A stretch of DNA of 64,000 nt from an uncultured Planctomycetales bacterium (GTDB lineage: Bacteria; Omnitrophota; Gorgyraeia; Gygaellales; Profunditerraquicolaceae): assembly GCA_964603585.1 (NCBI GenBank), contig CAZRVK010000001.1, forward strand, positions 271,856 to 335,855, given 5' to 3'. A model generated the notes under the pieces. The model had not been told where the DNA came from. It made no database searches and was given only the letters and a program-made list of their open reading frames with translations. Shown piece after piece: positions 3,152-41,125 of the stretch. Numbering within the stretch: the stretch's first letter is position 1; every line of letters starts with the position of its first letter. The position numbers were made by a program, and so were the translations under genes.

Positions 3152-3179
3152 ATTGTTATATCTAAAACCCCTTTAAATA

Positions 3180-6714: not shown

Positions 6715-7140
6715 CTACTTTTCCATCCTCAACTCAAGGGAGTCACTGTCTGAACCGATCGTCACATGGTCATCGTATATTTTTATGATCTTGAACTTTC
6801 CAATAAAACTGCCCTCGCCAAAAACCTCTCCGTTAATCAGCGCTTGAGGGTTACGAGGGTCCCAAATGATCCCGGTAAGTGCCAGATCAACCGTATCCTC
6901 ATTCCGGCTGTAAACCTGCCCGGAAAAAGGGCATCTGCCCCAGGATACCGGAAGCTCGGGATCAGTAAATGAAACAGCAGGCAACGTCTTTTGCGTTAAT
7001 GTATCTGCAAGAACCGAAGTTGCCGAAACCTTGGGATTACGCGAATTTAACAACTTAAGACTGTTAGCCCAAACTAAGACCATAACTGGGACCAAAACAA
7101 TAATGCCGATTATCTCTATCTGTTTCTTATCCATTCTCAT
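6715..7140 (-). CDS. PilP-like pilus assembly protein (N-terminal membrane anchor plus a beta-rich domain). Assignment rests on position only
   Basis: 141 aa with a TM anchor, located directly downstream of pilO-like and pilMN. No strong motif. Confidence 0.4.
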   Translation of the reverse strand: MRMDKKQIEIIGIIVLVPVMVLVWANSLKLLNSRNPKVSATSVLADTLTQKTLPAVSFTDPELPVSWGRCPFSGQVYSRNEDTVDLALTGIIWDPRNPQALINGEVFGEGSFIGKFKIIKIYDDHVTIGSDSDSLELRMEK

Positions 7141-7703
7141 TTATTTATCAGGTCCTCCTGAAGATAAGCAGAAACAATCAATTCGACATTCAGGTTGGTT
7201 TGTCCCTGGCCGTTTCCATGGATATTAACCTGCTTGAGAGAAATCAAGATCGGGAAATTATCCCGCAAAGCCAATAAATACCTGCCAAGATCCTGATACG
7301 TGCAAACCAACTTCAAGGAGATCGATAATTCCTTCAATGCCGAACCGGGGATATTAACTGATAGATCCTGTTTATTCAAGAAAGAGATATTTTCCACCTC
7401 GATCTTTAATCGCCTGGCATTTTCCGATAAATTCCTGATCACCTCATTTTCACTAACCGGCAGCCTTACTGAAGCTTCTTTTAGCAGTAAATTCAGGTCC
7501 TTTAGTGCTTCCGATAAAGGTTTGGCTCCGGTTATTTTGCCTATCTGGGATATCTCTTTTTCCATGAAGGAAATCTTGTTTTTCATTACCGACAGCATCC
7601 GGCTTTGCGGCAGATAAACAAAAACGATAAAAACTAATACTGCCAGGACAATTATCACAGACAGACAAATAATCTTTTTTTGTGTTTTAGATAATATCTT
7701 CAT
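7137..7703 (-). CDS. pilO: Type IV pilus assembly protein PilO-like
   Basis: 188 aa with an N-terminal TM, a coiled coil and a C-terminal domain. Translationally coupled to pilMN and to the PilP-like gene. Confidence 0.55.
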   Translation of the reverse strand: MKILSKTQKKIICLSVIIVLAVLVFIVFVYLPQSRMLSVMKNKISFMEKEISQIGKITGAKPLSEALKDLNLLLKEASVRLPVSENEVIRNLSENARRLKIEVENISFLNKQDLSVNIPGSALKELSISLKLVCTYQDLGRYLLALRDNFPILISLKQVNIHGNGQGQTNLNVELIVSAYLQEDLINK

Positions 7704-9289
7704 TGTAATTTAAAGCCTATATCAAAGGTAAGCACATCTTCACCTGCCTTACTACTTTTTGCGACATTAATAATATTGATATCCTTGAACATGCCGGAAT
7801 CAGCCAAATCACGGAGAAAACTGGTCAATACTGTATCCGGATTAAGATCGGCTTTCTTGACAAACCCGGCAATATCCCCCGACATAGAACCGGCATTCAA
7901 GGAAAGATCGCTAAAGAAAAGGTCTTTTGCGGGAATATTACTTATTTTCTTAAGCATCATCCCGAATTGCGGCTGGCTATCCCTGGTTTTAGCAAAGAAA
8001 TTATTGAGGGCATCAAGCCTGTCTTTCATCTGCTTGATCTCCAGCAATACATTCAGTTGAAAATTAGTGTTATCCAAACGGTTCCGGTAAACCCGGGTAC
8101 TTACTTTGATAAAAGCAAAAGAAAACAGTAAGAGCAGCAACGCAATAAAGGTTACCCAGAACAAATAAGTCATCTGCAGTAACTCGTTCTTTTGAGTCCT
8201 AAACTCATCCGGCAGGATATCGCTACTCCTGTTGTAATCAAGTACCATACCCAAAGAATCATACTCCTTAATAAGGGTTTCCGGCTGCAGGCCAATAGAA
8301 ACCTTGATGTTTTCATTCACATCTACTAAAACAACATCCAGAGATAATTCCATCTTTAAGAATTTATCCAAATTCGGGATAGCCAAACCTAAACCTCCGA
8401 CCAGCATCTTCTCTATCTTTATTCCATCGAACTGATTAGCATAGTAATCACAAGTCCTTTTTATCTCCTGCGAAAGCAGTTCCAGCCAAGGGCGCAATAA
8501 AGCCAGGACCTGGTTTGCCCCCAGCTTATCCGTGTATGCCTGATTGTTTAGAGGTATACCTCCAACAAATAGCACCTTTTCTATTTCTTCTGCAGTTAAC
8601 TGCACCTTGCCCTTGTTTTCAGAATATAATTCTGTAGCCAATGCCTCCTTGAGTTTATCCACCGAAACGGGCAACTCACGGTAAAAACACAGAACTCCCT
8701 GTTTATATATCCCAAAATAAGAGCTATGCTCATAAAAATGCAGTATCCCTATGGTCGTATCTTTTCCCGGGATAAATTTACCCTCGATAAGGCTGGAGTA
8801 ACCAAAAGCAGAGATCCCCACACGCACAACCTCAACACCTGCCTGTTTTAAGAGCAAAACCTGGGAACGGACTTCATCTTCTAAAGCCAGGGCACAAATA
8901 ATATCAACCAGCTTGGCCCCGTCACTATCTATACGTTTATTGATTAAAGAGTACCCAAAAACTGCCTTAGCGGTATCAAAAGGACAATCCGGTTTAAGTT
9001 TGAAAACTGCGGCTTGGACCAATTCGGATTCAGGAAGATCGGGAAGTACAATACGTTTAATAAAAAGCGTGCGTAAGGACGGGATAAGGATTACTTTTGG
9101 ATGCGGGATCCTGTTATCTTTAATGAAATCGCGCAAACAATCCAAGATCAGGGTATTATTGGCGCCTGCGGGCAAAGCGACAATTTTAGCGGCATTTACC
9201 TTGATCACATCGCCAGCAACAACCTGGAATATCTTTAGCCCAAGGCTAAGGTCAACGATTATAAAGTGCTCTATTTTCTTTACCAGCAT
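7700..9289 (-). CDS. pilM: PilM-PilN fusion: actin-like ATPase fold (PilM) followed by a TM helix and a PilN-like coiled-coil domain
   Basis: 529 aa. The N-terminal ~350 aa look like the FtsA/PilM fold. There is a TM segment (LFWVTFIALLLLLFSFAFI) at ~aa 370, then a PilN-like C-terminus. Confidence 0.7.
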   Translation of the reverse strand: MLVKKIEHFIIVDLSLGLKIFQVVAGDVIKVNAAKIVALPAGANNTLILDCLRDFIKDNRIPHPKVILIPSLRTLFIKRIVLPDLPESELVQAAVFKLKPDCPFDTAKAVFGYSLINKRIDSDGAKLVDIICALALEDEVRSQVLLLKQAGVEVVRVGISAFGYSSLIEGKFIPGKDTTIGILHFYEHSSYFGIYKQGVLCFYRELPVSVDKLKEALATELYSENKGKVQLTAEEIEKVLFVGGIPLNNQAYTDKLGANQVLALLRPWLELLSQEIKRTCDYYANQFDGIKIEKMLVGGLGLAIPNLDKFLKMELSLDVVLVDVNENIKVSIGLQPETLIKEYDSLGMVLDYNRSSDILPDEFRTQKNELLQMTYLFWVTFIALLLLLFSFAFIKVSTRVYRNRLDNTNFQLNVLLEIKQMKDRLDALNNFFAKTRDSQPQFGMMLKKISNIPAKDLFFSDLSLNAGSMSGDIAGFVKKADLNPDTVLTSFLRDLADSGMFKDINIINVAKSSKAGEDVLTFDIGFKLQ

Positions 9290-9372
9290 GGCAGATCAGT
9301 GTTCTTCTAAAGTATTTATACCTGGCTTTACTGCTTTAGTATATCATGAAATTTGAATTCGCATACTAATTT

Positions 9373-10929
9373 TCATCTCCCCGTTTTTTTCTTTAAAAAC
9401 CCTTTATTATTCACGTCTTTTTTGTTTGGTACTGCTTCTACAGAACTTAACTGCTTCTTTAATCCCGATAGCGCAACACTGGCCGGCAAAAATCCCATAT
9501 CCACCTTCAAGGCTTCTTTGTAACAATCTTCTGCCCGGCGCAAATCATTCTTTTCCCAATACAGTCCTCCTAAATTACACCAGACATGGGGTTGTTTAGG
9601 ATTGATCATCAGATTTATCCAGCAATAAGTAATAGCCTGCTCCTTTTCACCCATAGCATAAAATGAACCTGCCAGGTTATTATACGCCATATACCCATCC
9701 GGGAAATTATTAATATTACTCTTCCAATAACTGATGATATTTTGATAATCCCGGTTATGTTTTAAGGTAACCAGGGTATAACTCGATAAAAATACAATTA
9801 ACGAAATAAAAGCACTAACCCTAAGTATCTTACGGTGCAAAACACTTTTATTGATGATCTCCCAAACCAAAACAAAAAGATACGCCAGGATCAGGCAAAC
9901 ACCGGCCGAGGCAAGATAAACATACCGCTCGGAAACAATATTACAGATCGGAACCAGGTTTGAATACGGAAGATAAGCAATAAAGATCCATGCGATCCCG
10001 AACGATACCGGCGCCGCCCGCCTGCGACACTTAAAAAACAGGATAACCGAGGCAATGATTATCCCGATGGAAATAAAAAACGCCGGGGTTAATCTGTTCG
10101 TACCAACAGTCGCATAGGCAAAGGTATGGTAAAGCCCGCGTTCAAGCGGCAGGTAAAGTATCTTTAAATAATATGCAAAGGCCTTTGCCGCCACGATTAA
10201 ATAGCTATAGCCCTTAAACATGCAAATCGTACGTATAAAATTATTGCGGTTAACCAAGAACATCCCTAAAACCACCAGGGAGATCAGGATTATCCCCGAC
10301 AAAACTAAAATCCTGGCTTTGGTTAAATACCCGGGTTCTCTGAATTTCCCCCTGAAAAACAGGTCATAGGCAAGAAACATGAACGGAAGAGTAACCACAT
10401 TATTGCCGGTTAAAAAACAAAAACAGAAACAGATGATCGCGCAAAAAAGGTTTACGAGGGAATTATCGGACCTGACATAGAAAAATACCGCCGAAACATA
10501 AAAAAAACTCGAAAACACATACGGCCCGCCAGAGATCCAGCTCACTGCTTCAGTATGGATCGGGTGGACAGCAAAGATCAAACTGGCGATAAATGCAAGC
10601 AAGAAACTGGCAAACAGCCTGTGAAGAAGCAGAAAAAGCATCACCACACACCCAGCATGCATGATCACATTGAATAAATGAAAAAAGAAGGTTCTCCCCC
10701 CTGAAAACTGCCAGATCACTCCCCGAACAAGTTCCGTGAGAGCCCCCGGCGCAACACGCAGATTCTGGCGGAAACAGGCCTTTAGATCATGGATATTATT
10801 ATTATTCTGGATCCCGGCATAATCATCGATCAAGAATTCACCATGCAGTGAATTGCAATAAACGGCAACGCTTATAAAGGCGAGCAGAAGAATAAATGCC
10901 AGTTTCAATCCTTGATCATGAAATTTCAT
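9373..10929 (-). CDS. TMTC-like GT-C-fold membrane protein with C-terminal TPR repeats (DUF1736/PMT_2-type). Putative protein O-glycosyl (mannosyl) transferase
   Basis: Multi-TM N-terminal region carrying the TMTC hallmark motif FAVHPIHTEAVSWISGGPY, then TPR repeats (YNNLAGSFYAMGEKEQAITY..CYKEALKV). Sits between pilA and pilMN. Confidence 0.7.
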   Translation of the reverse strand: MKFHDQGLKLAFILLLAFISVAVYCNSLHGEFLIDDYAGIQNNNNIHDLKACFRQNLRVAPGALTELVRGVIWQFSGGRTFFFHLFNVIMHAGCVVMLFLLLHRLFASFLLAFIASLIFAVHPIHTEAVSWISGGPYVFSSFFYVSAVFFYVRSDNSLVNLFCAIICFCFCFLTGNNVVTLPFMFLAYDLFFRGKFREPGYLTKARILVLSGIILISLVVLGMFLVNRNNFIRTICMFKGYSYLIVAAKAFAYYLKILYLPLERGLYHTFAYATVGTNRLTPAFFISIGIIIASVILFFKCRRRAAPVSFGIAWIFIAYLPYSNLVPICNIVSERYVYLASAGVCLILAYLFVLVWEIINKSVLHRKILRVSAFISLIVFLSSYTLVTLKHNRDYQNIISYWKSNINNFPDGYMAYNNLAGSFYAMGEKEQAITYCWINLMINPKQPHVWCNLGGLYWEKNDLRRAEDCYKEALKVDMGFLPASVALSGLKKQLSSVEAVPNKKDVNNKGFLKKKTGR

Positions 10930-10959
10930 AAGCGATCATGGCTGTGTAAAGCTTACATT

Positions 10960-11008
10960 AAAAAAGCTGGCTTCTCATTTTTATCTTGTGATGAAAAGCC
11001 AGCTTTTT
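10960..11008 (-). terminator. Rho-independent terminator downstream of pilA
   Basis: Perfect 14-bp inverted repeat (aagctggcttctcat / atgaaaagccagctt) followed by a T-run on the minus strand, immediately after the pilA stop. Confidence 0.6.
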
Positions 11009-11040
11009 GAAAATTACCAGTAAATAATCCGATATTATCT

Positions 11041-11442
11041 CTAAAAACCGGACCCCACGGTTTGGGAAGCCGCGCTATATATACGGCCGTTTGTTGCATC
11101 ATAGATCCAGCCTATCCCGCTCGCCCCTGCAACCTCGGCACCCCCTGCCTGTATGCTGGTGGCATTATTATACGGATTGGCCGGTACGCCAAATTGCATT
11201 ACCCCTCCGGGAGATGACCCCAGCTCGGTTATTGAAGGGTATGAATTAAGGCCCGAAACGGCATTTTTAGCATACCAAATAGCGATACCACTGCGTAAAC
11301 CTCCCAAAGCGCCTTTTAAAGCGGCATTCCTTGCGCTCTCCTGCAAATTAATGAATGTCGGTATCGCAACACCTGCTAAAATACCGAGGATAACGATTAC
11401 CATTACCAGCTCAATCAGGGTAAAACCACTTCGTTTACTCAT
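11041..11442 (-). CDS. pilA: Type IV major pilin
   Basis: Canonical class III signal MSKRSG|FTLIELVMVIVILGILA with Glu at +5. 133 aa with a Ser/Gly/Ala-rich C-terminal half, a good RBS (GGGAGG) and a strong terminator. Confidence 0.9.
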   Translation of the reverse strand: MSKRSGFTLIELVMVIVILGILAGVAIPTFINLQESARNAALKGALGGLRSGIAIWYAKNAVSGLNSYPSITELGSSPGGVMQFGVPANPYNNATSIQAGGAEVAGASGIGWIYDATNGRIYSAASQTVGSGF

Positions 11443-11456
11443 CCTGCCTCCCTTTT

Positions 11457-11485
11457 ATTAAATTATTTATTACCAATTTTGGCAA
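11457..11485 (-). promoter_or_regulatory. Candidate sigma70-type promoter for pilA (TTGCCA-17-TTTAAT), inside the 3' end of the pseudopilin gene
   Basis: Read on the minus strand, located ~25 nt upstream of the pilA RBS. Confidence 0.3.
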
Positions 11486-11859
11486 CCAGATGCTCGAGAA
11501 TAAACCCACCCATTCTGCCTGTCATATATGTACCGGTTCATAAATGGATCTATAAGAAAACCCTCTTCATCAACCCTAAACGGCTCTAAATAATATTCTT
11601 TTTTAATACTACTCTTTTCCCTGCCGGAAGTCAAGTCTTTCTTAAACAACTCCTTAAGTTCTTCAGGGAACCGGCCATTGACGATCCGGTAATACTCCAA
11701 AGCCATGCGGATATTACTAAGCTCATTACGCAGCGCCATTTTATTTGCTGCCCCTAAAGTAAGGTTTGCGTATATCCCGAATATACCAACCAAGACAAAT
11801 ATCAGACAAGCAGAGACCGCTAATTCAAACACCGTTAACGCCTTATTTCTTTTACTCAT
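11470..11859 (-). CDS. GspG/PulG-like pseudopilin (minor pilin)
   Basis: Start chosen at MSKRNKA|LTVFELAV, a prepilin-like leader with Ala at -1 and Glu at +5. Its ATG forms an ATGA overlap with the pilC stop. The C-terminal region (EYYRIVNGRFPEEL..DPFMNRYIY) resembles the GspG fold. The listed ORF extends 8 codons further upstream. Confidence 0.6.
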   Translation of the reverse strand: MSKRNKALTVFELAVSACLIFVLVGIFGIYANLTLGAANKMALRNELSNIRMALEYYRIVNGRFPEELKELFKKDLTSGREKSSIKKEYYLEPFRVDEEGFLIDPFMNRYIYDRQNGWVYSRASGCQNW

Positions 11860-20936: not shown

Positions 20937-21368
20937 ATGCAGGTCAAAGACATTATGACCAAGAGCGTAATCACTGTTACCGCCCAAGCTAAACTTAAAG
21001 AAGTCGCCAGGATCTTCAAAGAACACCGCATCAATGGGGTCCCAGTAGTCAATAAAAAAAATGAGGTCATCGGGATCATTACCTTAACAGACATGTTAAA
21101 GATGCTTAAAGATATCCATTTGTTGGATAAAGAGGAAAATAACGCTTCAGAAACGCTTGAGATGAAGGAATGCCTGATCGAGGAAAAAGAAAATGCGACC
21201 GTAAATATGAAAATGTCAAATCAAGTCTGGAGTGTTGAAGAAGACGCTGATATCGATTATGTCCTGGAGTTGATGTGCGAACATAATATCCACACCATAC
21301 CGGTACTTAAAAACCGGATATTGGTAGGAATAATCGGGGCCACCGACATAGTGGATGTCTGCATCTAA
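20937..21368 (+). CDS. CBS-domain pair protein
   Basis: 143 aa with two CBS motifs (VKDIMTKSVITV..GVPVV; HNIHTIPVL..GIIGATDIV). Confidence 0.8.
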   Translation: MQVKDIMTKSVITVTAQAKLKEVARIFKEHRINGVPVVNKKNEVIGIITLTDMLKMLKDIHLLDKEENNASETLEMKECLIEEKENATVNMKMSNQVWSVEEDADIDYVLELMCEHNIHTIPVLKNRILVGIIGATDIVDVCI

Positions 21369-21388: not shown

Positions 21389-21955
21389 CTACCGCTTTAG
21401 CAAAATATCGAATTCTAAATTCACCCTTCCGGAAGGCCCCTTTAAACCTAAAGTAGTGTTCTTGAGGGTATGGCTAATAATATATACAAAAAAAACATCG
21501 TTTCTTCGCTCCATCACGGTAAGGCTTATGCCATCAACCGCAACCGAGGCTTTTGGCAAAAGATACCTAATGAATTTAGCCGGGACCGCGATCTCAAAAG
21601 CACGATTGCCCTGACGGATCATACTCTGGCGGATTATCCCCAGGCAGTCAATATGCCCGGTAACAAAATGCCCGGAAATACGATCTCCCAATTTTAAAGC
21701 GGGTTCTAAATTGACCTTATCAGATATTCTTAAAGCACCAAGATTGGTGCTTTTAGCTGTTTCCGGCATCACCTCAAAAACAAGCGTGCCGTAAGATACT
21801 TTTACCAAAGTCAGACAAACACCGTTTACTGCAATACTATCCCCTACCAAAGCGCCCTGACAAACACCGGATGATGCCACTTCCAGTAAAATCATACTGG
21901 AGCGCCGAGATACCATTTTCACTAAAGCCAGTTCCTGCACAATTCCGCTAAACAT
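21389..21955 (-). CDS. ribE: Riboflavin synthase (alpha subunit)
   Basis: MFSGIV start and the two lumazine-binding repeats. Overlaps the ribD stop. Confidence 0.85.
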   Translation of the reverse strand: MFSGIVQELALVKMVSRRSSMILLEVASSGVCQGALVGDSIAVNGVCLTLVKVSYGTLVFEVMPETAKSTNLGALRISDKVNLEPALKLGDRISGHFVTGHIDCLGIIRQSMIRQGNRAFEIAVPAKFIRYLLPKASVAVDGISLTVMERRNDVFFVYIISHTLKNTTLGLKGPSGRVNLEFDILLKR

Positions 21956-23036
21956 ATGCCTCGAAAAGAAAATCTTCCCCGATACGCCGCAGTTTAATTT
22001 CTTTTAGTTTAAATGCCTTCTCTACCCTTAATATCCCCTCTCCCATAACCGAACTTATTGCGGACTTGCCTCCGATGATCTTAGGGCTGACGAAGAATAA
22101 TATCCGGTCTACCAGTCTTTCATCAAATAAGCTTCCAATCAATGTTCCTCCTCCCTCCACAAGGATATTGCTTATCCCTAAAGAGGCGATTTTCTTCATC
22201 ATATCTTTGAGGTTTATCTGCCCGTTTTTTTCTTTAACCTGCATTACCCGGGCCTGGTTCGACAATACCTGGCGGTTTTGTGTTAGTTGTCCAGAAGATA
22301 CCGGTAAAGTAACGATAATCACTTCCGATGAACCAGAAAATATTTTCGCACAAGCAGGAGTACTTAGCTGGCTGTCCACAATAATCTTTACCGGGTGCCG
22401 TTTAGAAAACCAGGCATCTAATTTCGGGTCATCCCGCAAAACAGTATTTACCCCTACCATTATCGCATCAAACCCGGCACGCAAGCGATGCGCATAAGCC
22501 CGCGAGCGGTCAGAAGTTATCCATTTTGAATCACCGGACCTGGTTGCGATCTTGCCATCCAGCGACTCGGCAACTTTTACCGTAACAAAAGGCATCCGGG
22601 TAGTGATATATTTTATAAAGACCTCATTCATTTTCTTGAGTTTATCCTCTAAACAACCCACAGACACCTTAATACTATTTTCTTTTAAAACCGCAATCCC
22701 CTTACCGTTATTCAAAGGATTTGGATCAATCATACCGATAATGACCTCTTTAATCCCGCTTTTAATTACCGTATCGACACAAGGCGGAGTACGGCCAAAA
22801 TGCGTACAGGGCTCCAGAGTAACATAAAGCACCGCGCCTTGGGCAAGTTTTCCAGCTTCAGCGATTGCACCGACTTCAGCATGAGCCAATCCTGCCTGTT
22901 CATGATAACCACACCCAACAATACGACCGTTTTTTACTACCAGAGCGCCAACCATCGGGTTCGGCGCAGTTTTTCCCTTGCCTTTAAGGGCCAAGCGCAT
23001 GGCTAAATTCATATAATACTCATGGTTCCTCTTCAT
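21948..23036 (-). CDS. ribD: Bifunctional diaminohydroxyphosphoribosylaminopyrimidine deaminase / 5-amino-6-(5-phosphoribosylamino)uracil reductase
   Basis: CMP/dCMP deaminase zinc motifs (HAEV..PCTHFGRTPPC) plus a RibD_C reductase domain. Confidence 0.9.
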   Translation of the reverse strand: MKRNHEYYMNLAMRLALKGKGKTAPNPMVGALVVKNGRIVGCGYHEQAGLAHAEVGAIAEAGKLAQGAVLYVTLEPCTHFGRTPPCVDTVIKSGIKEVIIGMIDPNPLNNGKGIAVLKENSIKVSVGCLEDKLKKMNEVFIKYITTRMPFVTVKVAESLDGKIATRSGDSKWITSDRSRAYAHRLRAGFDAIMVGVNTVLRDDPKLDAWFSKRHPVKIIVDSQLSTPACAKIFSGSSEVIIVTLPVSSGQLTQNRQVLSNQARVMQVKEKNGQINLKDMMKKIASLGISNILVEGGGTLIGSLFDERLVDRILFFVSPKIIGGKSAISSVMGEGILRVEKAFKLKEIKLRRIGEDFLFEAYV

Positions 23037-23057
23037 ATACGCTTCCTTAAACTTTAA

Positions 23058-23909
23058 CTAACCCCGGGCGGCCGATTTTAATCCTTCTACGAATTGATAC
23101 GGCAACTTGACCAAACCAATCTTTATATCCGGTTTTGCCTTACCATGGCAATCAGAACCGCCAGTAACTAAAAGGTCATATTCCTTTGCTAATTCAAGAT
23201 ACCGGTTGATCATCGATTGCGTATGTTCCGGATAATACACCTCAAGCCCCATGATACCGAAATCAACAAAATGCCGGATCATTTCATCGTTCCTTAAAAG
23301 ATACGGATGGGCTAAAACCGCAACCCCTCCGATCCCCCGGATCAACTGAATAGCCTCTAAGGGGGAAAACCTGAAACCACAAACATACGCAGGAGATTTA
23401 TCCCCGATATATCTCTGGAACGCTTCCGAGGTAGAACCGACAAATCCATCTTTTACCATTGCCCGGGCAATATGCAACCGGCCAACGGTGCCATCTCCTC
23501 CTATTTCAAACACCGATTCAGCTTTAAGCTTTATCCCCAGGCATTTCAGTTTATCCACCATTTCATACACACGAGCAATCCGGTTTTGCCGCAATAAAGC
23601 AAGCTTGCTCCTTAGATCGCCATTTGCCGGATCAAAACAATACCCCAGGATATGCACCTCTACCCCATTATATTCAGAACTTAACTCGATCCCGGGAACT
23701 ACCTCTATACCGAATTCCCGGGCCGCCGCAACCGCAGGGGTAATCCCTTCAATAGTATCGTGATCTACTATCGAGACCGCGGACAAGCCTGCTTTAACCG
23801 CTTTTTTTATCAACTCTTCCGGGGTAAAGGTACCGTCTGAAAACACGGTATGCAAATGCAAATCGGCAAATTTTACTTTTTCATCCTGCCGTTTGTTATT
23901 TGGCTTCAT
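23058..23909 (-). CDS. PHP-family (polymerase/histidinol-phosphatase-like) metal-dependent phosphoesterase embedded in the rib operon
   Basis: N-terminal DLHLHTVFSDG motif, 283 aa. Translationally coupled to nusB (4-nt overlap). Confidence 0.75.
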   Translation of the reverse strand: MKPNNKRQDEKVKFADLHLHTVFSDGTFTPEELIKKAVKAGLSAVSIVDHDTIEGITPAVAAAREFGIEVVPGIELSSEYNGVEVHILGYCFDPANGDLRSKLALLRQNRIARVYEMVDKLKCLGIKLKAESVFEIGGDGTVGRLHIARAMVKDGFVGSTSEAFQRYIGDKSPAYVCGFRFSPLEAIQLIRGIGGVAVLAHPYLLRNDEMIRHFVDFGIMGLEVYYPEHTQSMINRYLELAKEYDLLVTGGSDCHGKAKPDIKIGLVKLPYQFVEGLKSAARG

Positions 23910-24325
23910 TGCCTTCCTTTTTCCTGTTTGATCTTATCGAGTATGCCGTTTACGAACTTTCCCGCTTCCTGACCGGAATATTTCTTTGCCAGATCCACGG
24001 CTTCATTGATCGATACCTTGGGGGGAATATCACTGCGCATGATCAGTTCATAGCAGCCCAAACGCAGGACATTGCGATCAACCACCGCCATACGCTTAAG
24101 CTGCCAGTTAGTTGCATACTCGGATATTTGTTTATCAATGCTCGCCAGATTCTCTCCCACCCCTTTTACCAACTCAACAGTAAAAACCTTGACCTGATTA
24201 TCAATCCCTTCCTGAATATGAGTGGACCAAAAATTATCAAGGCTGGCATCACAAGGATCATGGGTAATATCCATCTGATAAAGTATCTGCAAAGCGAACT
24301 CGCGTGCTTGTGTGCGTTTTCTCAT
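23906..24325 (-). CDS. nusB: Transcription antitermination factor NusB
   Basis: 139 aa, AREFALQILYQ start typical of NusB. Confidence 0.85.
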   Translation of the reverse strand: MRKRTQAREFALQILYQMDITHDPCDASLDNFWSTHIQEGIDNQVKVFTVELVKGVGENLASIDKQISEYATNWQLKRMAVVDRNVLRLGCYELIMRSDIPPKVSINEAVDLAKKYSGQEAGKFVNGILDKIKQEKGRQ

Positions 24326-24346
24326 CGTAAATTAAATGTTCACCGG

Positions 24347-24814
24347 TTATTTGATTTGGGTTAATAAATTCGCCATTTCAATAGCGTTTACCGCCGCATC
24401 CCTTCCTTTATTGCCATCTTTAGTGCCTGCGCGCTCGATTGCCTGCTCAATCGTGTCTGCTGTAATCACTCCAAAAACTACGGGTAATCCAGTATCCAAA
24501 GAAACGCTGGCGATACCTTTGGCAACCTCCGCAGAAACATATTCAAAATGAGGAGTACTACCACGGATTACCGTGCCTAAACAAATCAGGGCATCATAAG
24601 ATCTAGTTTTTGCAAGTTTTAGAGCAACAAGCGGTATTTCAAAAGCACCGGGAACCCAGGTAACCGACAAATCCTTATCATCTGCTCCATGGCGCAATAA
24701 GGTATCCAGGCATCCGCTCAACAACTCCTTAGTGATCAAATCATTGAACCTGCTGGCTACAATCGCAAACCTTTTGCCTTTAGCTATAAGATTGCCTTCG
24801 ATTCTCTTTGACAT
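24347..24814 (-). CDS. ribH: 6,7-dimethyl-8-ribityllumazine synthase
   Basis: 155 aa with the FAIVASRFN signature. Confidence 0.9.
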
Positions 24815-24824
24815 ACTCCCTCCT

Positions 24825-26033
24825 TTATATTGTTAAATTATGCCCCATCTTTTCTTTTTTAGTCTTTAAATACCTTAAGTTTGATGGATTCGGCGGGATC
24901 TCTAAAGGGACCCTCTCTACTACACGTAAACCATAACCTTCCAAACCAACGATCTTACAAGGATTGTTCGTTAACAGACGAATATTCTTTAACCCCAGAT
25001 CCACCAGTATCTGTGCACCAATACCATAATCTCTCAAATCAGGTGCAAACCCCAAAGCCTGATTGGCCTCAACCGTATCCATCCCTTTATCCTGCAAGCT
25101 ATAAGCCCTGATCTTCTCTGTTAAGCCAATTCCCCGCCCTTCCTGATTCATATATAAAATGACTCCGCGTCCTTCTTTCTCAATAACCTGCATAGCCTTT
25201 TGCAGCTGACGGCCGCAATCACACCTCAATGAATTAAAAACATCACCCGTTAAACACTCGGAATGCACCCTAACCAAAACACCTTCTTGAGTCAGGTCCC
25301 CCATGGTCAGGACAGTGTGGACTTGAGTATTAATCAAATCCTTATACAGGATCAAATTAAAAGTCCCATATTCGGTCGGTAATGTGGTGGACGCTACTTT
25401 CTCAACCAGTTTTTCCAGCCGGCGGCGGTATTCGATCAGACTTTCAATCGAACAAATCTTAAGCTTATGCTGCCTGGAAAACTCGATCAATTGAGGCAGC
25501 CGTGCCATCGTACCATCATCATTCATGATCTCACAAATGACACCCGCAGGATAAAGACCCGCTAAACGCATTAGATCTACAGTTGCTTCGGTATGGCCTG
25601 CCCTTACCAAGACACCGCCATTACGCGCCTTTAGAGGAAAAGTATGCCCGGGACGGATCAAATCCTCCGGTTTTGCTTGAGGGCTGATCAAAACTTCAAT
25701 CGTGCGTGCGCGGTCATACGCAGAGATCCCTGTAGTTGTACCTAATGCGGCATCTACCGAAATCATCCAAGCGGTAGAAAACTGGTCTTTCTTACGCCAG
25801 GAATGCTTGTCCGTAACCATTGGATCCAAATCCAAGCTTCTTAACCTTGCCTCTTCCATAGGGACACAAATAAGCCCGCGTCCAAATTTAGCCATGAAAT
25901 TTATATCTTCCGGGCGCGCAAAAGAAGCCGCCATCAACAAATCTCCTTCATTTTCGCGGCCTTCATCATCCACAACCACTACCATACGGCCATGCTTTAA
26001 ATCTTCTAAGATCTCCGGAATAGTATTGAACAT
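24825..26033 (-). CDS. ribBA: Bifunctional 3,4-dihydroxy-2-butanone-4-phosphate synthase / GTP cyclohydrolase II
   Basis: DHBP synthase ([14 protein letters not shown]) plus GTP cyclohydrolase II (CxCxxC..). Start chosen at the MFNTIPEIL Met because it has the better RBS (AAGGAAAG). The listed ORF begins 9 codons upstream at 26060. Confidence 0.85.
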
Positions 26034-26103
26034 GCTCTTTCCTTTGTTTTGTCCGATCATAAAACACTATCTGCTCAATAAACACCTGCGTACAACAATC
26101 AAT

Positions 26104-35491: not shown

Positions 35492-36469
35492 TTAAAAATC
35501 AATTATTTTTTTATATTCAAAAAATGCCGGTTTTCGGGAGAAATCCCAGCGCAGCAAGCCCAAATAGTCCGTACCGTCATGCCAATGATCCCGGGTATCG
35601 CGGAAAAATGCCCAAAAAACCTTTTCCACATGAGGGGTTCGGATCAAGGCAGGGATAGCGTCCCTGACAAATTCCGCTTGTGCTTTCTCTGTAGGATTAC
35701 TACCCAACCACCAATTATTGGCTTTTATGCCCCGTTTTAACCCCGGGCATCCGGTTTCAGTAACCCAGATATTCTTGGCGCCATCGCCGTTTGCCTGCAT
35801 AACCCGATAGGTTGAAGAAACCATATCAACCATTCTTTTTAAATACCCCGGATGCCCTGGTGAATCGAAAATATGGATGTTGAGGATATCAAAATACCGG
35901 TTCGGACGATGTTTATAGAACTGCCTGACACTTTTACTGCCGTTGGCGAATCCGCCGTTTAAGATCTTAAATCCAGTATCTATTTCCTTTAAAGCCCGGC
36001 AGGTATCTTTTAGTAAAGAACAGTACCCGGACAAACCACCGGGATTTTCCCAATAAACCGGAGAATCCGGTTCATTCCAGACCTCCCAGTATTTAACCTG
36101 ATCTTTATAGCGTAAAGACACCCTTTGGGCATAATCAACAAACAAACTCGTATCAGGGGAAGGACAATTCCATTTGCCTTTTGGAGAAGCCCATTCGGCA
36201 GAGTAATCCAATAACCCCAGGATCTGGATATTATTCTTAAAAAGCAGGTCTACGATCTGGTCATATTTCCTAAAACTGCTTATGCCCCGTTTTGGCTCAA
36301 TATCCTGCCACAAAAAATCCAGGCGAACACAGCCGACTCCGGCATCAAGCATTAACCTGACGGCCTTTTGTAAACTTTTTTTCGAAGGATATTTATAATT
36401 ATTCCAGGAATGGTTCCAATGCAGGAACTCCAATACCCCTAAAGGATTTAAAGCCCCTGCATTAGTCAT
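35492..36469 (-). CDS. Glycoside hydrolase, GH5-like (cellulase superfamily). No signal peptide
   Basis: Acid/base motif YWEVWNEPD and nucleophile region IWVTETG. Confidence 0.65.
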   Translation of the reverse strand: MTNAGALNPLGVLEFLHWNHSWNNYKYPSKKSLQKAVRLMLDAGVGCVRLDFLWQDIEPKRGISSFRKYDQIVDLLFKNNIQILGLLDYSAEWASPKGKWNCPSPDTSLFVDYAQRVSLRYKDQVKYWEVWNEPDSPVYWENPGGLSGYCSLLKDTCRALKEIDTGFKILNGGFANGSKSVRQFYKHRPNRYFDILNIHIFDSPGHPGYLKRMVDMVSSTYRVMQANGDGAKNIWVTETGCPGLKRGIKANNWWLGSNPTEKAQAEFVRDAIPALIRTPHVEKVFWAFFRDTRDHWHDGTDYLGLLRWDFSRKPAFFEYKKIIDF

Positions 36470-37808
36470 GCGTTTTCTGTTGAATATTTATATAATCATT
36501 AAACCCCATATTCTCCCCCAACTCCTGCCTAACCACCCGGATCCGGTCAGGCGGATAAGGATGCGTCCGAAAATATGAGTATGGCTGGGGCGGCCTTCTT
36601 TTATTTATTTGATCCAATTTTTCCAGAAATGTAAGCATTCCTTTGGGGTTATACCCGGCAAGTTTGGCATAACGCGTACCCAGCTGATCAGCCAAAAGTT
36701 CATCCTCACGGCTATATCCCATCATGATATCCGTTACCGCCAGATCCGCGGCATTGCCGACATCACCGCTTTGCGGAGCCTGGGAAAGAAGTATCCTCAA
36801 TAAGGAATACCCCATCTGGGCCTGTAGTTTCTTAATGCTGTGCCTGGCAACGATATGGCCGACCTCATGGCCGATAACCCCTGCCAGTTCATCATCGTTA
36901 TCCACCTTATCGATCAGCCCTTTAAAAATATATACATACCCTCCAGGCAAAGAGACCGCATTCACCTGATCTTCATCCAGCACCCGAAAATGATAATCAA
37001 TATCCTTGCGGTCACAGACTGCCGCGATCTTCTTGCCAATATCCTCTACGCGTTTTTGCAGCAAAGGGTCTGCGGAATCCTTGTAATGCTTGACCACCTG
37101 CCGGTCGATAGATTCTCCCATCGCGATTTCCTTATCGGTGCTGTAAAAATACACCTCTTCCGACTTGGTCACTATGTTATATTCTGTGGTACATCCGGAC
37201 AACAAAAAAACAAACAGGCAACAGCTTACCGAAAATACGTTTACACCGATCTTTTTTAACATAAGATACAGCTTCCTTAAAGGCAGACCGACTACATTAT
37301 AAAAACAGCCATCGACCTTACGGATAAAAAATGCTCCGCGGCCCTGAATATCAAAACTCCCGGCTTTATCCAAAGGCGAGGTAAGGCGAAAATATTCTTT
37401 TATCTGCCGATCATTAAGCCTGTCCATATAAACTTTTGTTAATTCGTAATCCAATAAGGTTTTCTTCTTATCCAGATCAATTACCGCTATACCGGTATAA
37501 AGGCTCTGCGGTTTTCGAGAAAGCTTTTTAAGCATTTTTTGCGCCTCAAGGATATCCTTAGGCTTGCCATAGATCAATTTGTCCTGGACCACAATGGTAT
37601 CGGCTGCCACAACCAAACCATGCTTTAATCTGGCAGCTGCATACCGGGCTTTTAATAAAGCATTCCTTTTTGCCAAACCCGCATAAGACACCCCGGGAAT
37701 ATCCCTATATTCAGGCAGGCGGCTTCTAACTGCCTTAAAATTCAGACCAAATATCTTGAATAATTTCCGGCGCGCCTTAGAAGCAGTGGCTAAATATATC
37801 ATTCTCAT
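36462..37808 (-). CDS. In-frame fusion of Maf-like nucleoside triphosphate pyrophosphatase (N-terminal ~185 aa) with an M48-family zinc metallopeptidase lipoprotein (YcaL/LoiP-like, HEVGH)
   Basis: A single 448-aa ORF. The Maf signature is (Y/I)LATASKARRKL..VVGLPL. An internal Met near codon 183 is followed by a lipoprotein signal (FSVSCCLFVFLLSGC), then HEVGHIVARH. Confidence 0.7.
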   Translation of the reverse strand: MRMIYLATASKARRKLFKIFGLNFKAVRSRLPEYRDIPGVSYAGLAKRNALLKARYAAARLKHGLVVAADTIVVQDKLIYGKPKDILEAQKMLKKLSRKPQSLYTGIAVIDLDKKKTLLDYELTKVYMDRLNDRQIKEYFRLTSPLDKAGSFDIQGRGAFFIRKVDGCFYNVVGLPLRKLYLMLKKIGVNVFSVSCCLFVFLLSGCTTEYNIVTKSEEVYFYSTDKEIAMGESIDRQVVKHYKDSADPLLQKRVEDIGKKIAAVCDRKDIDYHFRVLDEDQVNAVSLPGGYVYIFKGLIDKVDNDDELAGVIGHEVGHIVARHSIKKLQAQMGYSLLRILLSQAPQSGDVGNAADLAVTDIMMGYSREDELLADQLGTRYAKLAGYNPKGMLTFLEKLDQINKRRPPQPYSYFRTHPYPPDRIRVVRQELGENMGFNDYINIQQKTHD

Positions 37809-39046
37809 CCTGAAGCACTCTCCCCAGCAAGATACCCTGTTGAAAATGCCGCTTGCAAATTAAAACCTCCGGTATCCGCATCCAGATCGATCATCTCTCC
37901 AGAGAAATACAACCCCTTTATCAGCCGGGATTCCATCGTCCGAGGATGGATTTCTTTTAAAGATATCCCACCTTGAGTAACCATTGCTTCCTTTAAAGGC
38001 CGTGGACGTAAAATCTGCAATCTAAACTTCTTAAGCAAAGATGTCATCGCTCCGCGCTCATTTTGGGTTATCTGGCCCGCCAATTTAAGCGGATCGATTT
38101 TAACATTATCTACAAACACCTCTACCAGCCTAAGAGGCAGAAAACCTTTCATGATACTCTTGACCGCCTTTTTGGGGAATAATTTGAACTCTCGTAAAAA
38201 CCGGTCATTGATCTGGTCCATGGACAAAGCAGGTTTTAAATCAATATCCAAATAAACCTTTTTATTTTGCGCAAGCCAATCCACGATCCTGCCGCTTAAC
38301 GATAAAACCAGGGGCCCGGAAACGCCAAAATCAGTAAACATAAGCTCACCGATTTCCGAAACCAGTTCTTTTTTACCGTCAAGAAAAACAAGCCGGATGT
38401 TCTTAAGCGTCAAACCTTCCAGTAATCTCGGCAAATCCCCAGATACTTCCAAAGCCACTAACCCCGCCCTGCAAGGCACAATCTGATGCCCCAGGCGCTT
38501 GGCTAAAACCAAACCATCTCCGGTTGAACCGGTCGCACCATACGACATGCCTCCGGTAGCCAAAATAACCTTATCCGCATAAAGTGTCGAGCCGTTAGAA
38601 AGCGCCACCCCTTTGATCAACCCATTATGTACTAAAACATCCTCTACCCGGCAATTATAAACAATATTTACTTTATTACGAAGCAACTCACGGATTAATA
38701 CCTCAAGTACACTGCCAGCCTTATCGGTTACCGGGAAAACCCGGTTTTGACGCTCCACCTTGACCTTAAGCCCGCGTTGTTCGAAAAAATCGATCAGTTC
38801 ACGGTTAAAGAACTTCTTAAATGCATCCCGCAGAAACTGTCCATTCCTGGAAAACCTCGATAAAAAAGATTCTAAATCACAATCATTGGTAAGATTGCAA
38901 CGCCCCTTGCCGCTTAACAAGAGCTTTCGGCCTAACGCAGAGTTCTTTTCAATAAGGGTCACATCCTGCCCAAGCTGCGCGGCTCTAACCGATGCCATTA
39001 TCCCAGCAGGACCGCCCCCGCAAACCACGATCTTATTCTTAGCCAC
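37805..39046 (-). CDS. FAD-dependent flavoprotein, HI0933/BaiN (aminoacetone-oxidase-like) family
   Basis: GTG start. Rossmann motif VVCGGGPAG, 413 aa. Confidence 0.75.
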   Translation of the reverse strand: MAKNKIVVCGGGPAGIMASVRAAQLGQDVTLIEKNSALGRKLLLSGKGRCNLTNDCDLESFLSRFSRNGQFLRDAFKKFFNRELIDFFEQRGLKVKVERQNRVFPVTDKAGSVLEVLIRELLRNKVNIVYNCRVEDVLVHNGLIKGVALSNGSTLYADKVILATGGMSYGATGSTGDGLVLAKRLGHQIVPCRAGLVALEVSGDLPRLLEGLTLKNIRLVFLDGKKELVSEIGELMFTDFGVSGPLVLSLSGRIVDWLAQNKKVYLDIDLKPALSMDQINDRFLREFKLFPKKAVKSIMKGFLPLRLVEVFVDNVKIDPLKLAGQITQNERGAMTSLLKKFRLQILRPRPLKEAMVTQGGISLKEIHPRTMESRLIKGLYFSGEMIDLDADTGGFNLQAAFSTGYLAGESASG

Positions 39047-39066: not shown

Positions 39067-40008
39067 CTAAAGGCCAAAATCCTTTATTTTGAAAATTGAT
39101 TCCAGTTTTACCCCAACTTTAGCTAAATTATCCTCGGCTCCCTCATCCCGGTCGACAATCACTATTGCCCGGCAAACTTCAACCCCAAGTTCATCCATTA
39201 CCAACTTTGCCTCAATTAAAGCCTTGCCGGTAGTTGCAACATCATCAACCAAGACCACCCGGCTGTTCTTTTTTAACTCCGGGCCTTCCACCTGGCGCTG
39301 CATCCCATGCCCTTTAGCGGCTTTACGAACAATGAAAGTCTTGAGTGGAAGTTTATGAATATGGCTAAGACAGGCAATTGAGCCGGTAATCGGGTCAGCG
39401 CCCAAAGTCGGGCCTCCAACAGCATCGATCTCCAAGCCTTCTATAGACCGCAAAATAATACTTGCGACTAAAAATGCCCCTTCCGGAGTAAGAGTAATGA
39501 TCCGGCCATCCAGGTAATATTTACTGGTTTTACCTGAAGAAAGGCGGAAATCACCGATCTTTAAAGCATCTTTTTTCAATAAAACCATTAGCTGTTTCTT
39601 TAAAGAAACAGTTTCTTCTACAAGGGGAGAACATTTCATGTCAATCAACCTTTCTATCTCAACAAATAATTTATTCAAATCAAAAGGCTTCATAATGTAG
39701 GTATCCGCTCCTACAACCCTGCCGACGATCCTATCCACATCCGTACTTTTAGCAGTCAACATGATTACCGGGGTATCTGCAAGAGCCTTATCCTTGCGAA
39801 TCTGGCGGCACACCTCTTCCCCAAACATACCCGGCAGCATTAAATCCAGGATTATAAGGTCCGGTTTATGGCTTTTTGCCTTTTCCAACCCATCGATACC
39901 ATCATTAGCAACAATCACATCATATTCTTTTTTCTCAAGGCGAAGCATCAGTATCTTACATAAAGAAACTTCGTCATCGACAATCAATATTTTCTTTTTT
40001 GTCCCCAT
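39067..40008 (-). CDS. pyrE: Receiver domain fused to orotate phosphoribosyltransferase (REC-OPRTase)
   Basis: Start chosen at MGTKKKILIVDDE, which has a strong RBS (GGAAGGAGAGGG). The 49-codon upstream extension in the listed ORF is translation of the tandem repeats. The C-terminal half has OPRTase motifs (IGDFRLSSGKTSKYYLD; VVLVDDVATTGKAL). Confidence 0.75.
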   Translation of the reverse strand: MGTKKKILIVDDEVSLCKILMLRLEKKEYDVIVANDGIDGLEKAKSHKPDLIILDLMLPGMFGEEVCRQIRKDKALADTPVIMLTAKSTDVDRIVGRVVGADTYIMKPFDLNKLFVEIERLIDMKCSPLVEETVSLKKQLMVLLKKDALKIGDFRLSSGKTSKYYLDGRIITLTPEGAFLVASIILRSIEGLEIDAVGGPTLGADPITGSIACLSHIHKLPLKTFIVRKAAKGHGMQRQVEGPELKKNSRVVLVDDVATTGKALIEAKLVMDELGVEVCRAIVIVDRDEGAEDNLAKVGVKLESIFKIKDFGL

Positions 40009-40021
40009 CACCCTCTCCTTC

Positions 40022-40150
40022 CACAGAAAGTGGAACACCCGGCCATCCGATAAGCCGGGGTGTGAACACAGAAAGTGGAACACCCGGCCATCCGATAAGC
40101 CGGGGTGTGAACACAGAAAGTGGAACACCCGGCCATCCGATAAGCCAGTT
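40022..40150. repeat. Tandem direct repeat, 45-bp unit in ~2.8 copies. Each unit carries a GC-rich inverted repeat (ACACCCGGC..GCCGGGGTGT)
   Basis: Seen in sequence: cacagaaagtggaacacccggccatccgataagccggggtgtgaa repeated at 40022, 40067 and 40112. Contiguous with no spacers. Immediately upstream of the REC-OPRTase RBS. Confidence 0.85.
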
Positions 40151-40240
40151 AACACCTCTTCAAGACTATATCAGAATTTTACCACTAAAAAGATACACAG
40201 GCAATACTTTATGATTGTTTCGTTGTCATGCACACATGAT

Positions 40241-40339: not shown

Positions 40340-40368
40340 TTGACAAAATATAGTTTAGTTGTTATTAT
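40340..40368 (+). promoter_or_regulatory. Consensus sigma70 promoter TTGACA-17-TATTAT, 7 nt upstream of the comF ATG (leaderless arrangement)
   Basis: Seen in sequence. The listed ORF's TTG start is the -35 box. Confidence 0.55.
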
Positions 40369-40375
40369 ATGGGGT

Positions 40376-41125
40376 ATGTTAGGCGGCCTGATTAAGGGCT
40401 TGATAGAGATAATCTATCCTAAAAATTGCATTATATGCAAAAACAGCGTAAAAACCAAAGCAGGGATAGATGATTTTATCTGCCTCAAATGCTGGGGAAA
40501 AATAAAAAAGAATCTCCCCCCATTTTGCCTTTGCTGCGGGAGACATTTAGAAAAAAACAACCCCGCAAAGAATATCTGTCCTGCTTGCATCAAAACACCG
40601 TTACATTTTGACCGGGCCTTCAGCCCCTGTATTTACGAAGAAATTATACGTAACCTGATCCATGAATTTAAATACTTTGGCCGTGATTACCTGGGAAAAA
40701 CCTTAAGCAAAATAATGATCGAATTTATCCGTGAATATGATCTGCCGATGCAATATATCGATACCGTCATCCCTATTCCCTTGCACAAAACAAAACTAAG
40801 AGAAAGGGAATTCAACCAGGCACAAGTCTTAAGTGGAAATATCGCCCGGGAATTCGACAAAAAACATTTACTTAATGCCTTAAAACGCTGCCGACCGACA
40901 CAACGCCAAGCAGAACTAAAAAACAGCCGCCGTTTCGAAAACATCAATAATAGTTTTTCTTTTGACCCGAGACATTCAGTACAAGGAGAAAACGTCCTGT
41001 TAGTAGACGATATTTTAACTACCGGCGCGACCGCATCAGAAGCTGCGCGAATATTAAAAAATGCCGGGGCCAATATAGTATTTGTCATGACATTGGCAAG
41101 AACCGACCTAAAACACCTGACATGA
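40376..41125 (+). CDS. comF: ComF family protein (ComFC-like, double zinc ribbon plus phosphoribosyltransferase fold)
   Basis: N-terminal Cys pairs (YPKNCIICKN..CLKCW..CLCCG..CPAC) and a PRT motif (VLLVDDILTTGATA). Confidence 0.75.
   Translation: MLGGLIKGLIEIIYPKNCIICKNSVKTKAGIDDFICLKCWGKIKKNLPPFCLCCGRHLEKNNPAKNICPACIKTPLHFDRAFSPCIYEEIIRNLIHEFKYFGRDYLGKTLSKIMIEFIREYDLPMQYIDTVIPIPLHKTKLREREFNQAQVLSGNIAREFDKKHLLNALKRCRPTQRQAELKNSRRFENINNSFSFDPRHSVQGENVLLVDDILTTGATASEAARILKNAGANIVFVMTLARTDLKHLT

Follow-up and report, generated by a model that had tools for sequence, protein, structure and literature searches.

Does a response-regulator receiver (REC) that shares one reading frame with an orotate phosphoribosyltransferase (OPRTase, PyrE) belong to a genuine protein, does the enzyme half still convert orotate and PRPP to OMP and PPi, as PyrE does, and what would a phosphorylatable receiver do to it? 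A gene on the minus strand of a 64-kb stretch of Omnitrophota DNA, hereafter the window, raises these questions. An earlier note on this DNA had described a REC-OPRTase fusion at 39067-40008, and the present analysis bears this out: the fusion is real and conserved, both of its domains are complete by Pfam and NCBIfam, and it recurs in about ten protein clusters.

Structure of the fused gene and its two domains

The gene and its immediate leader comprise the following features.

39067..40008 (-), REC-pyrE fusion gene, 313 aa plus stop (open reading frame; Pfam and NCBIfam matches)
39643..39996 (-), REC domain, residues 5-122 (PF00072)
39846-39844 (-), GAT codon of the phospho-acceptor Asp55
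39604..39642 (-), inter-domain linker, residues 123-135 (13 aa; from the alignment of fusions)
39070..39603 (-), OPRTase domain, residues 136-313 (TIGR00336; alignments to 2p1z, 5hkf and E. coli PyrE)
39304-39327 (-), flexible catalytic loop, R228-K229-A-A-K232-G-H234-G235
39220-39258 (-), PRPP loop VVLVDDVATTGKA, residues 251-263
40011..40022 (-), Shine-Dalgarno-like GGAAGGAGAGGG, ending 2 nt 5′ of the ATG at 40008 (direct reading)
40022..40146 (-), perfect 45-bp tandem repeat, 2.8 copies (TRF score 250, 100% matches)

The open reading frame as listed extends beyond this gene to a GTG at 40155. We nevertheless assign the start to the ATG at 40008 and not to the GTG, because all homologues start there (with N-termini of the form M-x-K-K-I/V-L-I throughout), because the Shine-Dalgarno-like GGAAGGAGAGGG precedes it, and because the extension merely reads through the repeat; it stays open solely by virtue of the 45-bp unit, which adds 15 codons in frame. 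The leader of ~165 nt that holds the repeat is private to this genome. The repeat was found nowhere else in the window and in none of the other loci fetched except L001, which derives from the same organism, and an upstream alignment showed it to be missing from the corresponding regions of relatives. Its predicted fold was only modestly better than that of shuffled sequences (z -2.4). A known RNA element or a terminator was considered for the repeat and dropped, as there was neither an Rfam match nor a terminator-like site at this position. One assembly (L001) is broken at the perfect repeat, just upstream of the gene.

The N-terminal half matched Pfam Response_reg (PF00072) over residues 7-118 (E 1.3e-26; 93.4 bits versus a cut-off of 30.2). 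The receiver signature is complete: D11 and D12 form the acidic pair, D55 is the phospho-acceptor, T85 and Y104 are the switch residues, and the conserved Lys is K107. The motifs quoted in the earlier note (ILIVDDE, LDLMLPG, T85, K107 and VVLVDDVATTGKAL) were all located in the sequence. In the AF2 model this half adopts the (beta-alpha)5 receiver fold, with five successive strand-helix units, and Foldseek superposed it on the receivers of VicR, PhoP, ArlR and YycF with TMt values of 0.90-0.96 at 41-48% identity. Receivers of the OmpR/PhoB family (PhoB, YycF/VicR, PhoP, ArlR) are its best matches in both sequence and structure. An OmpR/PhoB-family transcription factor was ruled out, because the protein has no winged-helix DNA-binding domain: PF00486 (Trans_reg_C) found no match in it, and its C-terminal half is an OPRTase. 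The NCBIfam PhoB model gave 116 bits over the receiver only, and both the PhoB and the YycF models remained far below their family cut-offs.

The C-terminal 178 residues aligned end to end with solved OPRTases, namely the Corynebacterium enzyme (2P1Z, E 8e-29) and that of M. tuberculosis (5HKF, E 1e-26); the E. coli enzyme 1ORO, whose sequence is identical to the E. coli PyrE used in our alignments, was matched with an E-value of 1e-14. Pfam Pribosyltran covered residues 218-310 (E 7e-11), while the NCBIfam pyrE model TIGR00336 covered residues 143-311 (profile positions 3-173 of 173) with 145 bits, above its equivalog cut-off of 106.8. The pLDDT of this domain in the AF2 model was about 90, and Foldseek aligned it to 5HKI, 5HKL and 2P1Z with TMt values of 0.85-0.91 and an rmsd of 2.0-3.1 A, so that in fold it is a type I phosphoribosyltransferase with the N-terminal hood of OPRTases (EC 2.4.2.10).

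A check of the catalytic residues by alignment, as the earlier note had called for, showed that all are intact, both relative to E. coli PyrE and among 120 relatives. In the flexible loop, R228, K229, K232 and H234 of the fusion correspond to R99, K100, K103 and H105 of E. coli PyrE; in the PRPP loop, D255, D256, T259 and G261 correspond to D124, D125, T128 and G130; and the conserved arginine R287 corresponds to R156. These loop residues, G235 and R287 were invariant across the 120-sequence alignment. E. coli K26 is replaced by Ser, and Y72-K73 by Thr-Leu, in the fusion; the same replacements are present in the M. tuberculosis OPRTase and in every stand-alone Omnitrophota pyrE.

Phosphoribosyltransferase (PRT) folds are reused as regulators elsewhere, e.g. 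in PyrR. By this precedent the PRT domain of the fusion could serve, without catalysing anything itself, as a sensor or output module (a pseudo-enzyme that resembles PyrR or senses PRPP), with a separate canonical pyrE doing the chemistry. The invariance of all catalytic residues and a TIGR00336 score above the equivalog cut-off both argue against such a role, as does the genomic setting described below. A PyrR-type regulatory protein was ruled out by NCBIfam ranking: no PyrR or UPRTase model appeared among the 25 best of 116 matches, where the only PRT models were the pyrE models TIGR00336 and PRK13809.

The linker that joins the two halves is constant in length to ±1 residue among the fusions, and its sequence varies. 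For the whole protein, AF2 returned a mean pLDDT of 89.9 and a pTM of 0.64, so that the relative orientation of the domains in the model is to be read as uncertain. The last helix of the receiver (alpha5, residues 111-125) is predicted to be separated by a 2-residue break from the first PRT helix (residues 128-148), giving a near-continuous junction. Model confidence was low only for the catalytic loop and for alpha4 of the receiver, which is typically its switch region; at the junction the pLDDT was about 65. Among solved chains, Foldseek found none that matches both halves.

Recurrence and distribution of the fusion

We searched 5.8 billion proteins and recovered, in public assemblies, a protein identical to that of the window (P0001) together with nine further 90%-identity clusters that carry the fusion. 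The nine are 61-66% identical, 311-314 aa long (one being a fragment), and contain both Pfam domains. They stem from NCBI MAGs, from JGI and ENA metagenome assemblies and from Logan assemblies, i.e. from different samples, and share the same junction; one is labelled by NCBI 'orotate phosphoribosyltransferase [Candidatus Omnitrophota bacterium]'. All other matches were stand-alone pyrE proteins, ~186 aa in length, that share 70-78% identity with the PRT half; several carry the label Omnitrophica or Omnitrophota.

Among GTDB species representatives, this type of pyrE is present at no fewer than 553 loci, the best 80 of which were examined. A fused REC-pyrE was found at none of the 80. The alignment runs only from residue ~120 or ~136 to residue 313 at 79 loci, which lack the REC domain, and the single locus that matches residues 5-312, L013, encodes the two halves as adjacent open reading frames in different frames: a REC gene at 2995-3366, ending in TGA, and a pyrE gene at 3371-3928, which begins with GTG and is preceded by a Shine-Dalgarno-like GGAAGGGA. 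The split in L013 is either genuine or a one-base error. No other REC-PRT architecture turned up among the best 150 matches of an exhaustive search of representatives (scores above about 157 bits). The one candidate with two matching stretches, P0166, proved to be a pyrE with an internal duplication, and two tblastn matches that reach residues 105-112 (L058 and L063), considered as REC remnants, merely have longer pyrE N-termini.

The different frames of the two halves in L013, the only GTDB representative with a REC at pyrE, mean that whether the genes are fused or split hinges on one base. The fusion might, on these grounds, be an artefact of assembly or gene calling, with a chimeric contig or a frameshift joining two genes, and the perfect repeat upstream did break the L001 assembly. 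We regard this as hardly conceivable. The reading frame of the window is continuous, and the 311-314-aa architecture recurs with its junction in ten clusters from NCBI, JGI, ENA and Logan; as these are independent assemblies of different samples, made with different assemblers, an assembly artefact is effectively excluded. The earlier note had named as possible counter-evidence that the fusion be unique to this assembly and split in relatives. The first part fails in view of about ten clusters from independent assemblies; the second holds to the extent that the halves are separate in L013 and that most Omnitrophota have no receiver at pyrE.

Where present, the receiver has been well preserved. 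Its key residues are invariant or nearly so in all ten fusions, and D55, T85, Y104 and K107 are strictly invariant and are kept in L013 as well, although the REC domains of the ten fusions are only 54-71% identical to each other. In our alignments this pattern indicates purifying selection on a working receiver. Just four REC positions (C17, F29, T79 and E117) separate the fusion receivers from their free relatives. E117 lies on the surface of alpha5 and is invariant in the fusions but mostly Lys in the free relatives, a weak hint of a fusion-specific contact.

The PRT halves of the fusions are no closer to each other (66-78% identity) than to stand-alone enzymes (76-80%; one pair, 90%), a neighbour-joining tree of PRT domains contained no fusion clade, and the fusions were monophyletic in 5 of 50 bootstraps of the REC tree. 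Likewise, fused and unfused genomes interleave in the identity matrices of two neighbouring gene products, the HI0933-like protein and the Maf-M48 protein. Since the junction is common to all fusions and the linker is constant in length, we tentatively prefer one origin, with repeated loss or recombination thereafter. Since the fusion is rare and patchy, since fused genomes do not cluster, and since 79 of the 80 best GTDB loci are without a REC, the receiver is, by its distribution, an optional and dispensable add-on.

The likely source of this receiver, judged by sequence similarity, are single-domain regulators of Omnitrophota. These CheY-like proteins of 122-142 aa are the closest non-fused receivers (54-62% identical), about as close to the fusion RECs as the latter are to each other; they differ from the REC of the fusion in being free-standing and in not lying beside pyrE. 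Their genes are found in clusters of the type REC / PAS-HisKA-HATPase / REC / ... / REC or beside a gene for a REC-GGDEF protein, and at L093-L098 three free receivers per cluster surround one small PAS histidine kinase. Four free RECs (P0272, P0273, P0281 and P0283) were considered as hidden split partners of pyrE and were discarded, as all lie in other contexts.

The pyrE locus

The surroundings of the fusion gene bear on whether it acts as the housekeeping pyrE. Three features are relevant here.

37805..39046 (-), HI0933-like flavoprotein gene (PF03486, E 6e-84), 20 nt past the pyrE stop
40176..40204 (-), predicted sigma-70-type promoter, TTGCCT-17-TG-TAAAAT (consensus scan)
40340..41125 (+), ComF-like gene, double zinc ribbon plus PRT fold (DZR_2 and Pribosyltran)

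The HI0933-like gene probably forms one operon with the fusion pyrE. On the other side, the earlier note had reported comF as the divergent neighbour, and this was confirmed by the two Pfam matches; the score with the comF model TIGR00201 was 108 bits, which is below the cut-off of that model. The same arrangement surrounds fused and unfused pyrE genes. Upstream lie a divergent comF-like gene and lptFG (or a PMT gene), and downstream lie the genes of the HI0933-like flavoprotein and of a Maf-M48 fusion protein. The set compared comprised the window, L002-L004, L012 and the P0009 contig for the fused form, and L006/7, L008, L009/10 and L011 for the unfused form. Because a comF-like gene adjoins the unfused pyrE of L006, L009 and L011 just as it adjoins the fused gene, this adjacency is uninformative on the fusion; the comparison of loci identifies it as ancestral and not fusion-specific.

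The promoter is shared in the same manner. TTGCCT-17-TG-TAAAAT was the sole minus-strand promoter-like site that the consensus scan detected upstream of the fusion gene, and it coincides (40204..40176) with a block, ATTGAAA...TTTAATGGTAAAAT, that the upstream alignment showed to be conserved in the window, L002, L012, L013, L006 and L011, hence in fused, split and unfused loci. A promoter-like site also overlaps the listed TTG start of the ComF-like gene, the true start of which is probably downstream of 40340. Given synteny and a promoter common to fused and unfused loci, the receiver joined a resident pyrE without altering its transcriptional context.

By position, the fusion gene is the orthologue of the housekeeping pyrE. 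It occupies the ancestral chromosomal slot, it is preceded by the promoter of its relatives' pyrE genes and its catalytic residues are intact, all of which makes it very probable that the protein is a working PyrE and neither a pseudo-enzyme nor a mere PRPP sensor. A six-frame profile search revealed no second pyrE-like open reading frame in the 64-kb window, and stand-alone enzymes encoded in exactly this slot, behind the same promoter, have 70-78% identity to the PRT half. The non-catalytic role introduced above is accordingly very unlikely, and the suggestion in the earlier note that the PRT domain may serve as a nucleotide- or PRPP-sensing output does not agree with these findings.

Possible roles of the receiver

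If the enzyme half is a working PyrE, the question that is left concerns the receiver. We think it probable that the protein is an enzymatic response regulator, i.e. a housekeeping PyrE with a phosphorylatable N-terminal receiver, in which phosphorylation modulates the OPRTase dimer. OPRTase is an obligate homodimer, and each subunit lends its flexible loop to complete the active site of the other (E. coli and Salmonella; PDB 1ORO, 1LH0). A histidine kinase or acetyl phosphate would phosphorylate Asp55, and this would rearrange the alpha4-beta5-alpha5 face. The change would pass through the short, length-constrained linker, where alpha5 nearly runs into the first OPRTase hood helix in the AF2 model, and the geometry or stability of the OPRTase homodimer would be altered as a result. 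Our preferred guess is that phosphorylated receivers would pair, as in PleD or WspR, stabilizing the productive dimer and raising activity; CheB-like release of an inhibitory contact comes a close second. In net terms, a signal would act on de novo UMP synthesis at the post-translational level, with transcription remaining as in unfused relatives. For pairing of this kind, the invariant Glu117 is of interest: it takes the place of what we take to be the conserved alpha5 Arg of the PhoB dimer interface, so by analogy the fusion may lack the canonical alpha4-beta5-alpha5 salt bridges. Counting against such control of the enzyme by its receiver are the rarity and patchiness of the fusion, the small number (four) of REC positions that set its receivers apart from free ones, the lack of conservation in the linker sequence, the absence of an adjacent kinase gene, and the split in L013.

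The last of these observations fits another history, in which a small receiver gene was inserted behind the pyrE promoter and ahead of pyrE itself, as in L013, and a one-base frame change then joined the two genes. The fusion would in that case be neutral, or nearly so; its halves would work independently, and the REC would signal elsewhere. The separate open reading frames of L013, where pyrE has its own Shine-Dalgarno-like GGAAGGGA, agree with this, as do the variable linker sequence and a patchy distribution that makes loss seem easy. Against it, linker length has been held to ±1 residue over about 35-40% sequence divergence, about ten diverged lineages have retained the architecture, and E117 on alpha5 is invariant in the fusions while mostly Lys in free relatives. 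Even the split form in L013 keeps the receiver directly upstream in one transcription unit with pyrE, which argues for a functional link. Taken together, we judge a neutral fusion to be unlikely.

The receiver might also be the recipient of information from the enzyme. In addition to the fusion gene, the window contains the following receiver and kinase genes.

14784-15158, single-domain REC gene, a paralogue 48% identical to the REC of the fusion
15164-15574, single-domain REC gene
15576-19109, PAS-HisKA-HATPase kinase gene, the only kinase of the window
19775-20893, REC-REC gene with two REC domains

Counting the fusion, a six-frame profile search thus yielded five REC domains in four genes, which corrects the count of five REC-containing genes given in the earlier note. 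The kinase gene has type IV pilus genes as neighbours and is accompanied by the two single-domain receivers and the REC-REC protein; it is ~20 kb from the fusion, to which no kinase gene is adjacent. The substrate state of the OPRTase (PRPP or orotate bound versus free) would, with information flowing in this direction, alter the rate at which the receiver is phosphorylated or dephosphorylated. The OPRTase would still be an enzyme, and the protein would serve as a phosphate sink or input, gated by metabolism, within the branched networks of single-domain receivers that are typical of Omnitrophota. The closest receivers are indeed output-less and occur three per cluster round one small PAS kinase (L093-L098), an architecture typical of phosphate-sink or branched pathways, and a PAS kinase gene accompanied by two single REC genes and one REC-REC gene occurs in the window as well. 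On the other hand, the fusion gene is neither in nor near the kinase clusters, no sequence feature sets this direction of flow apart from control of the enzyme by the receiver, and in the literature searched we found no precedent for an enzyme domain that gates its own receiver. We consider it distinctly unlikely.

Modulation of the OPRTase dimer by the receiver, the reading that we prefer, has parallels among known proteins. Stand-alone short PyrE proteins of ~180 aa (5HKF, 2P1Z and the 186-aa Omnitrophota pyrE) share the catalytic loop, the PRPP loop and the fold, and the fusion adds to these an N-terminal receiver of ~122 residues and a linker of 13 residues. Response regulators with enzymatic outputs include the methylesterase CheB, the diguanylate cyclases PleD and WspR, and RpfG. 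They too consist of an N-terminal phosphorylatable receiver followed by a catalytic domain; in their case the output is a signalling enzyme, whereas here it is a central enzyme of nucleotide biosynthesis. REC domains fused to 'standard metabolic enzymes' are a recognized, loosely defined class of narrow phyletic distribution that is essentially unstudied (Galperin and colleagues, PMC5847659). Neither the solved structures matched nor the literature searched included an OPRTase with a receiver, and we found no mention there of a receiver-OPRTase fusion. The REC-OPRTase protein is an undescribed, rare example of this known class of fusions.

What would regulation of this type mean for the cell? 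Known control of pyrimidine synthesis in bacteria operates through transcription and attenuation (PyrR, UTP-sensitive attenuators) and through allostery at ATCase and CPSase. A receiver wired to OPRTase would, if our reading is true, be a different control point, namely a signal-transduction input at the PRPP-consuming step. As the protein is small (313 aa), soluble and easily tested, and has stand-alone relatives with 70-78% identity, it could offer a clean system for studying the regulation of an obligate-dimer metabolic enzyme by a receiver. Should phosphorylation do nothing, the locus would instead illustrate how easily receivers are gained and lost before housekeeping genes.

In either case the fusion adds to the picture of Omnitrophota as rich in output-less receivers. 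A wider and quite speculative possibility, to which we give little credence at present, is that it serves as a 'Rosetta stone' for an overlooked, general phospho-control of pyrimidine synthesis in Omnitrophota. The PyrE of unfused relatives would then be bound in trans by a free, homologous single-domain receiver encoded in the REC / PAS-kinase clusters, and the split arrangement of L013 would be a natural intermediate. With either the fused or the in-trans arrangement, a lifestyle signal, for example contact with a host or prey perceived through the pilus-associated kinase system, would turn de novo UMP synthesis on or off.

Leader and tandem repeat upstream of REC-pyrE

In this genome a leader of ~165 nt separates the conserved promoter from the start codon of the REC-pyrE gene, and a perfect tandem repeat sits within it:

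40009-40175, leader
40022-40146, perfect 45-bp tandem repeat, 2.8 copies

The repeat-bearing leader is unique to the genome of the window. In its relatives, by contrast, only about 5-15 nt lie between the -10 box and the pyrE ATG, so that their pyrE mRNA is leaderless or almost so. The 45-bp repeat contains a GC-rich hairpin, and a search of Rfam with it returned no match. Being in frame with REC-pyrE, it gives rise to a spurious ORF of 362 aa; the Logan assembly of the same organism is broken here, its locus L001 beginning inside the repeat.

Genes flanking REC-pyrE

Two features stand out on either side of the fusion gene:

36462-37808 (-), Maf-M48 metallopeptidase fusion, one 448-aa ORF
40340-40368 (+), sigma-70 consensus match (11/12), TTGACA-17-TATTAT with TG

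In every Omnitrophota locus examined, with or without REC fused to pyrE, the Maf-M48 fusion is conserved as the second gene downstream of pyrE. Joining M48 to Maf, a nucleotide pyrophosphatase family, is an unusual combination within an apparent pyrE operon. On the other side, the true start of the divergent comF probably lies farther downstream than listed, because the sigma-70 match overlaps its listed TTG.

Relatives of the two fused domains

REC and pyrE are neighbouring ORFs in different frames at locus L013 (2995-3928; VGKM01000040.1, Omnitrophota MAG K_DeepCast_150m_m1_084). The REC stop (TGA, 3364-3366) is followed by a pyrE GTG start at 3371, immediately preceded by the SD-like GGAAGGGA; the arrangement either is a naturally split form of the fusion or results from a sequencing error of one base. 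In P0166 (272 aa), a metagenomic pyrE homologue, about 90 residues are duplicated in tandem inside the protein, with the stretch TLDPEGVALIGE...VVTSGGS present twice; the duplication is either an assembly artefact or genuine.

The nearest free relative of the fusion's receiver is the final REC of a conserved Omnitrophota cluster (L093-L098), REC / small PAS histidine kinase / REC / (unknown protein, DUF748) / REC, after which come OEP and ABC efflux genes; an example is L098 3061-5384 (GCA_028712505.1).

Signalling genes and composition of the window

The window also holds a pilus cluster (PilM-like, pilins, T2SSF, and a T2SSE that has an MshEN domain) with signalling genes, and four ORFs of 107-188 aa without a Pfam match at E <= 1e-5:

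100-423 (-), unmatched ORF
3800-4303 (-), unmatched ORF
6715-7140 and 7137-7703 (-), unmatched ORFs adjoining the PilM-like gene
7700-20893, type IV pilus/T2SS-like cluster and signalling genes
14784-15158 and 15164-15574, single-domain receivers after the pilus genes
15576-19109, PAS-PAS-HisKA-HATPase kinase, 1177 aa (residues 1-570 without Pfam match)
19775-20893, divergent gene for a 372-aa double-REC protein
20937-21368, CBS-pair protein following it

The two ORFs beside the PilM-like gene may encode PilN/PilO-type pilus assembly proteins. The window's content is mostly housekeeping (rib operon, 21389-26060; PNPase, FtsK, MetRS, CysRS, ispDF, radA and clpB-like genes). GC skew is negative in all 2-kb bins (-0.02 to -0.28) and the minus strand carries 57 of the 65 long ORFs across positions 1-64000, which places the window within one replichore with strong gene-strand bias.
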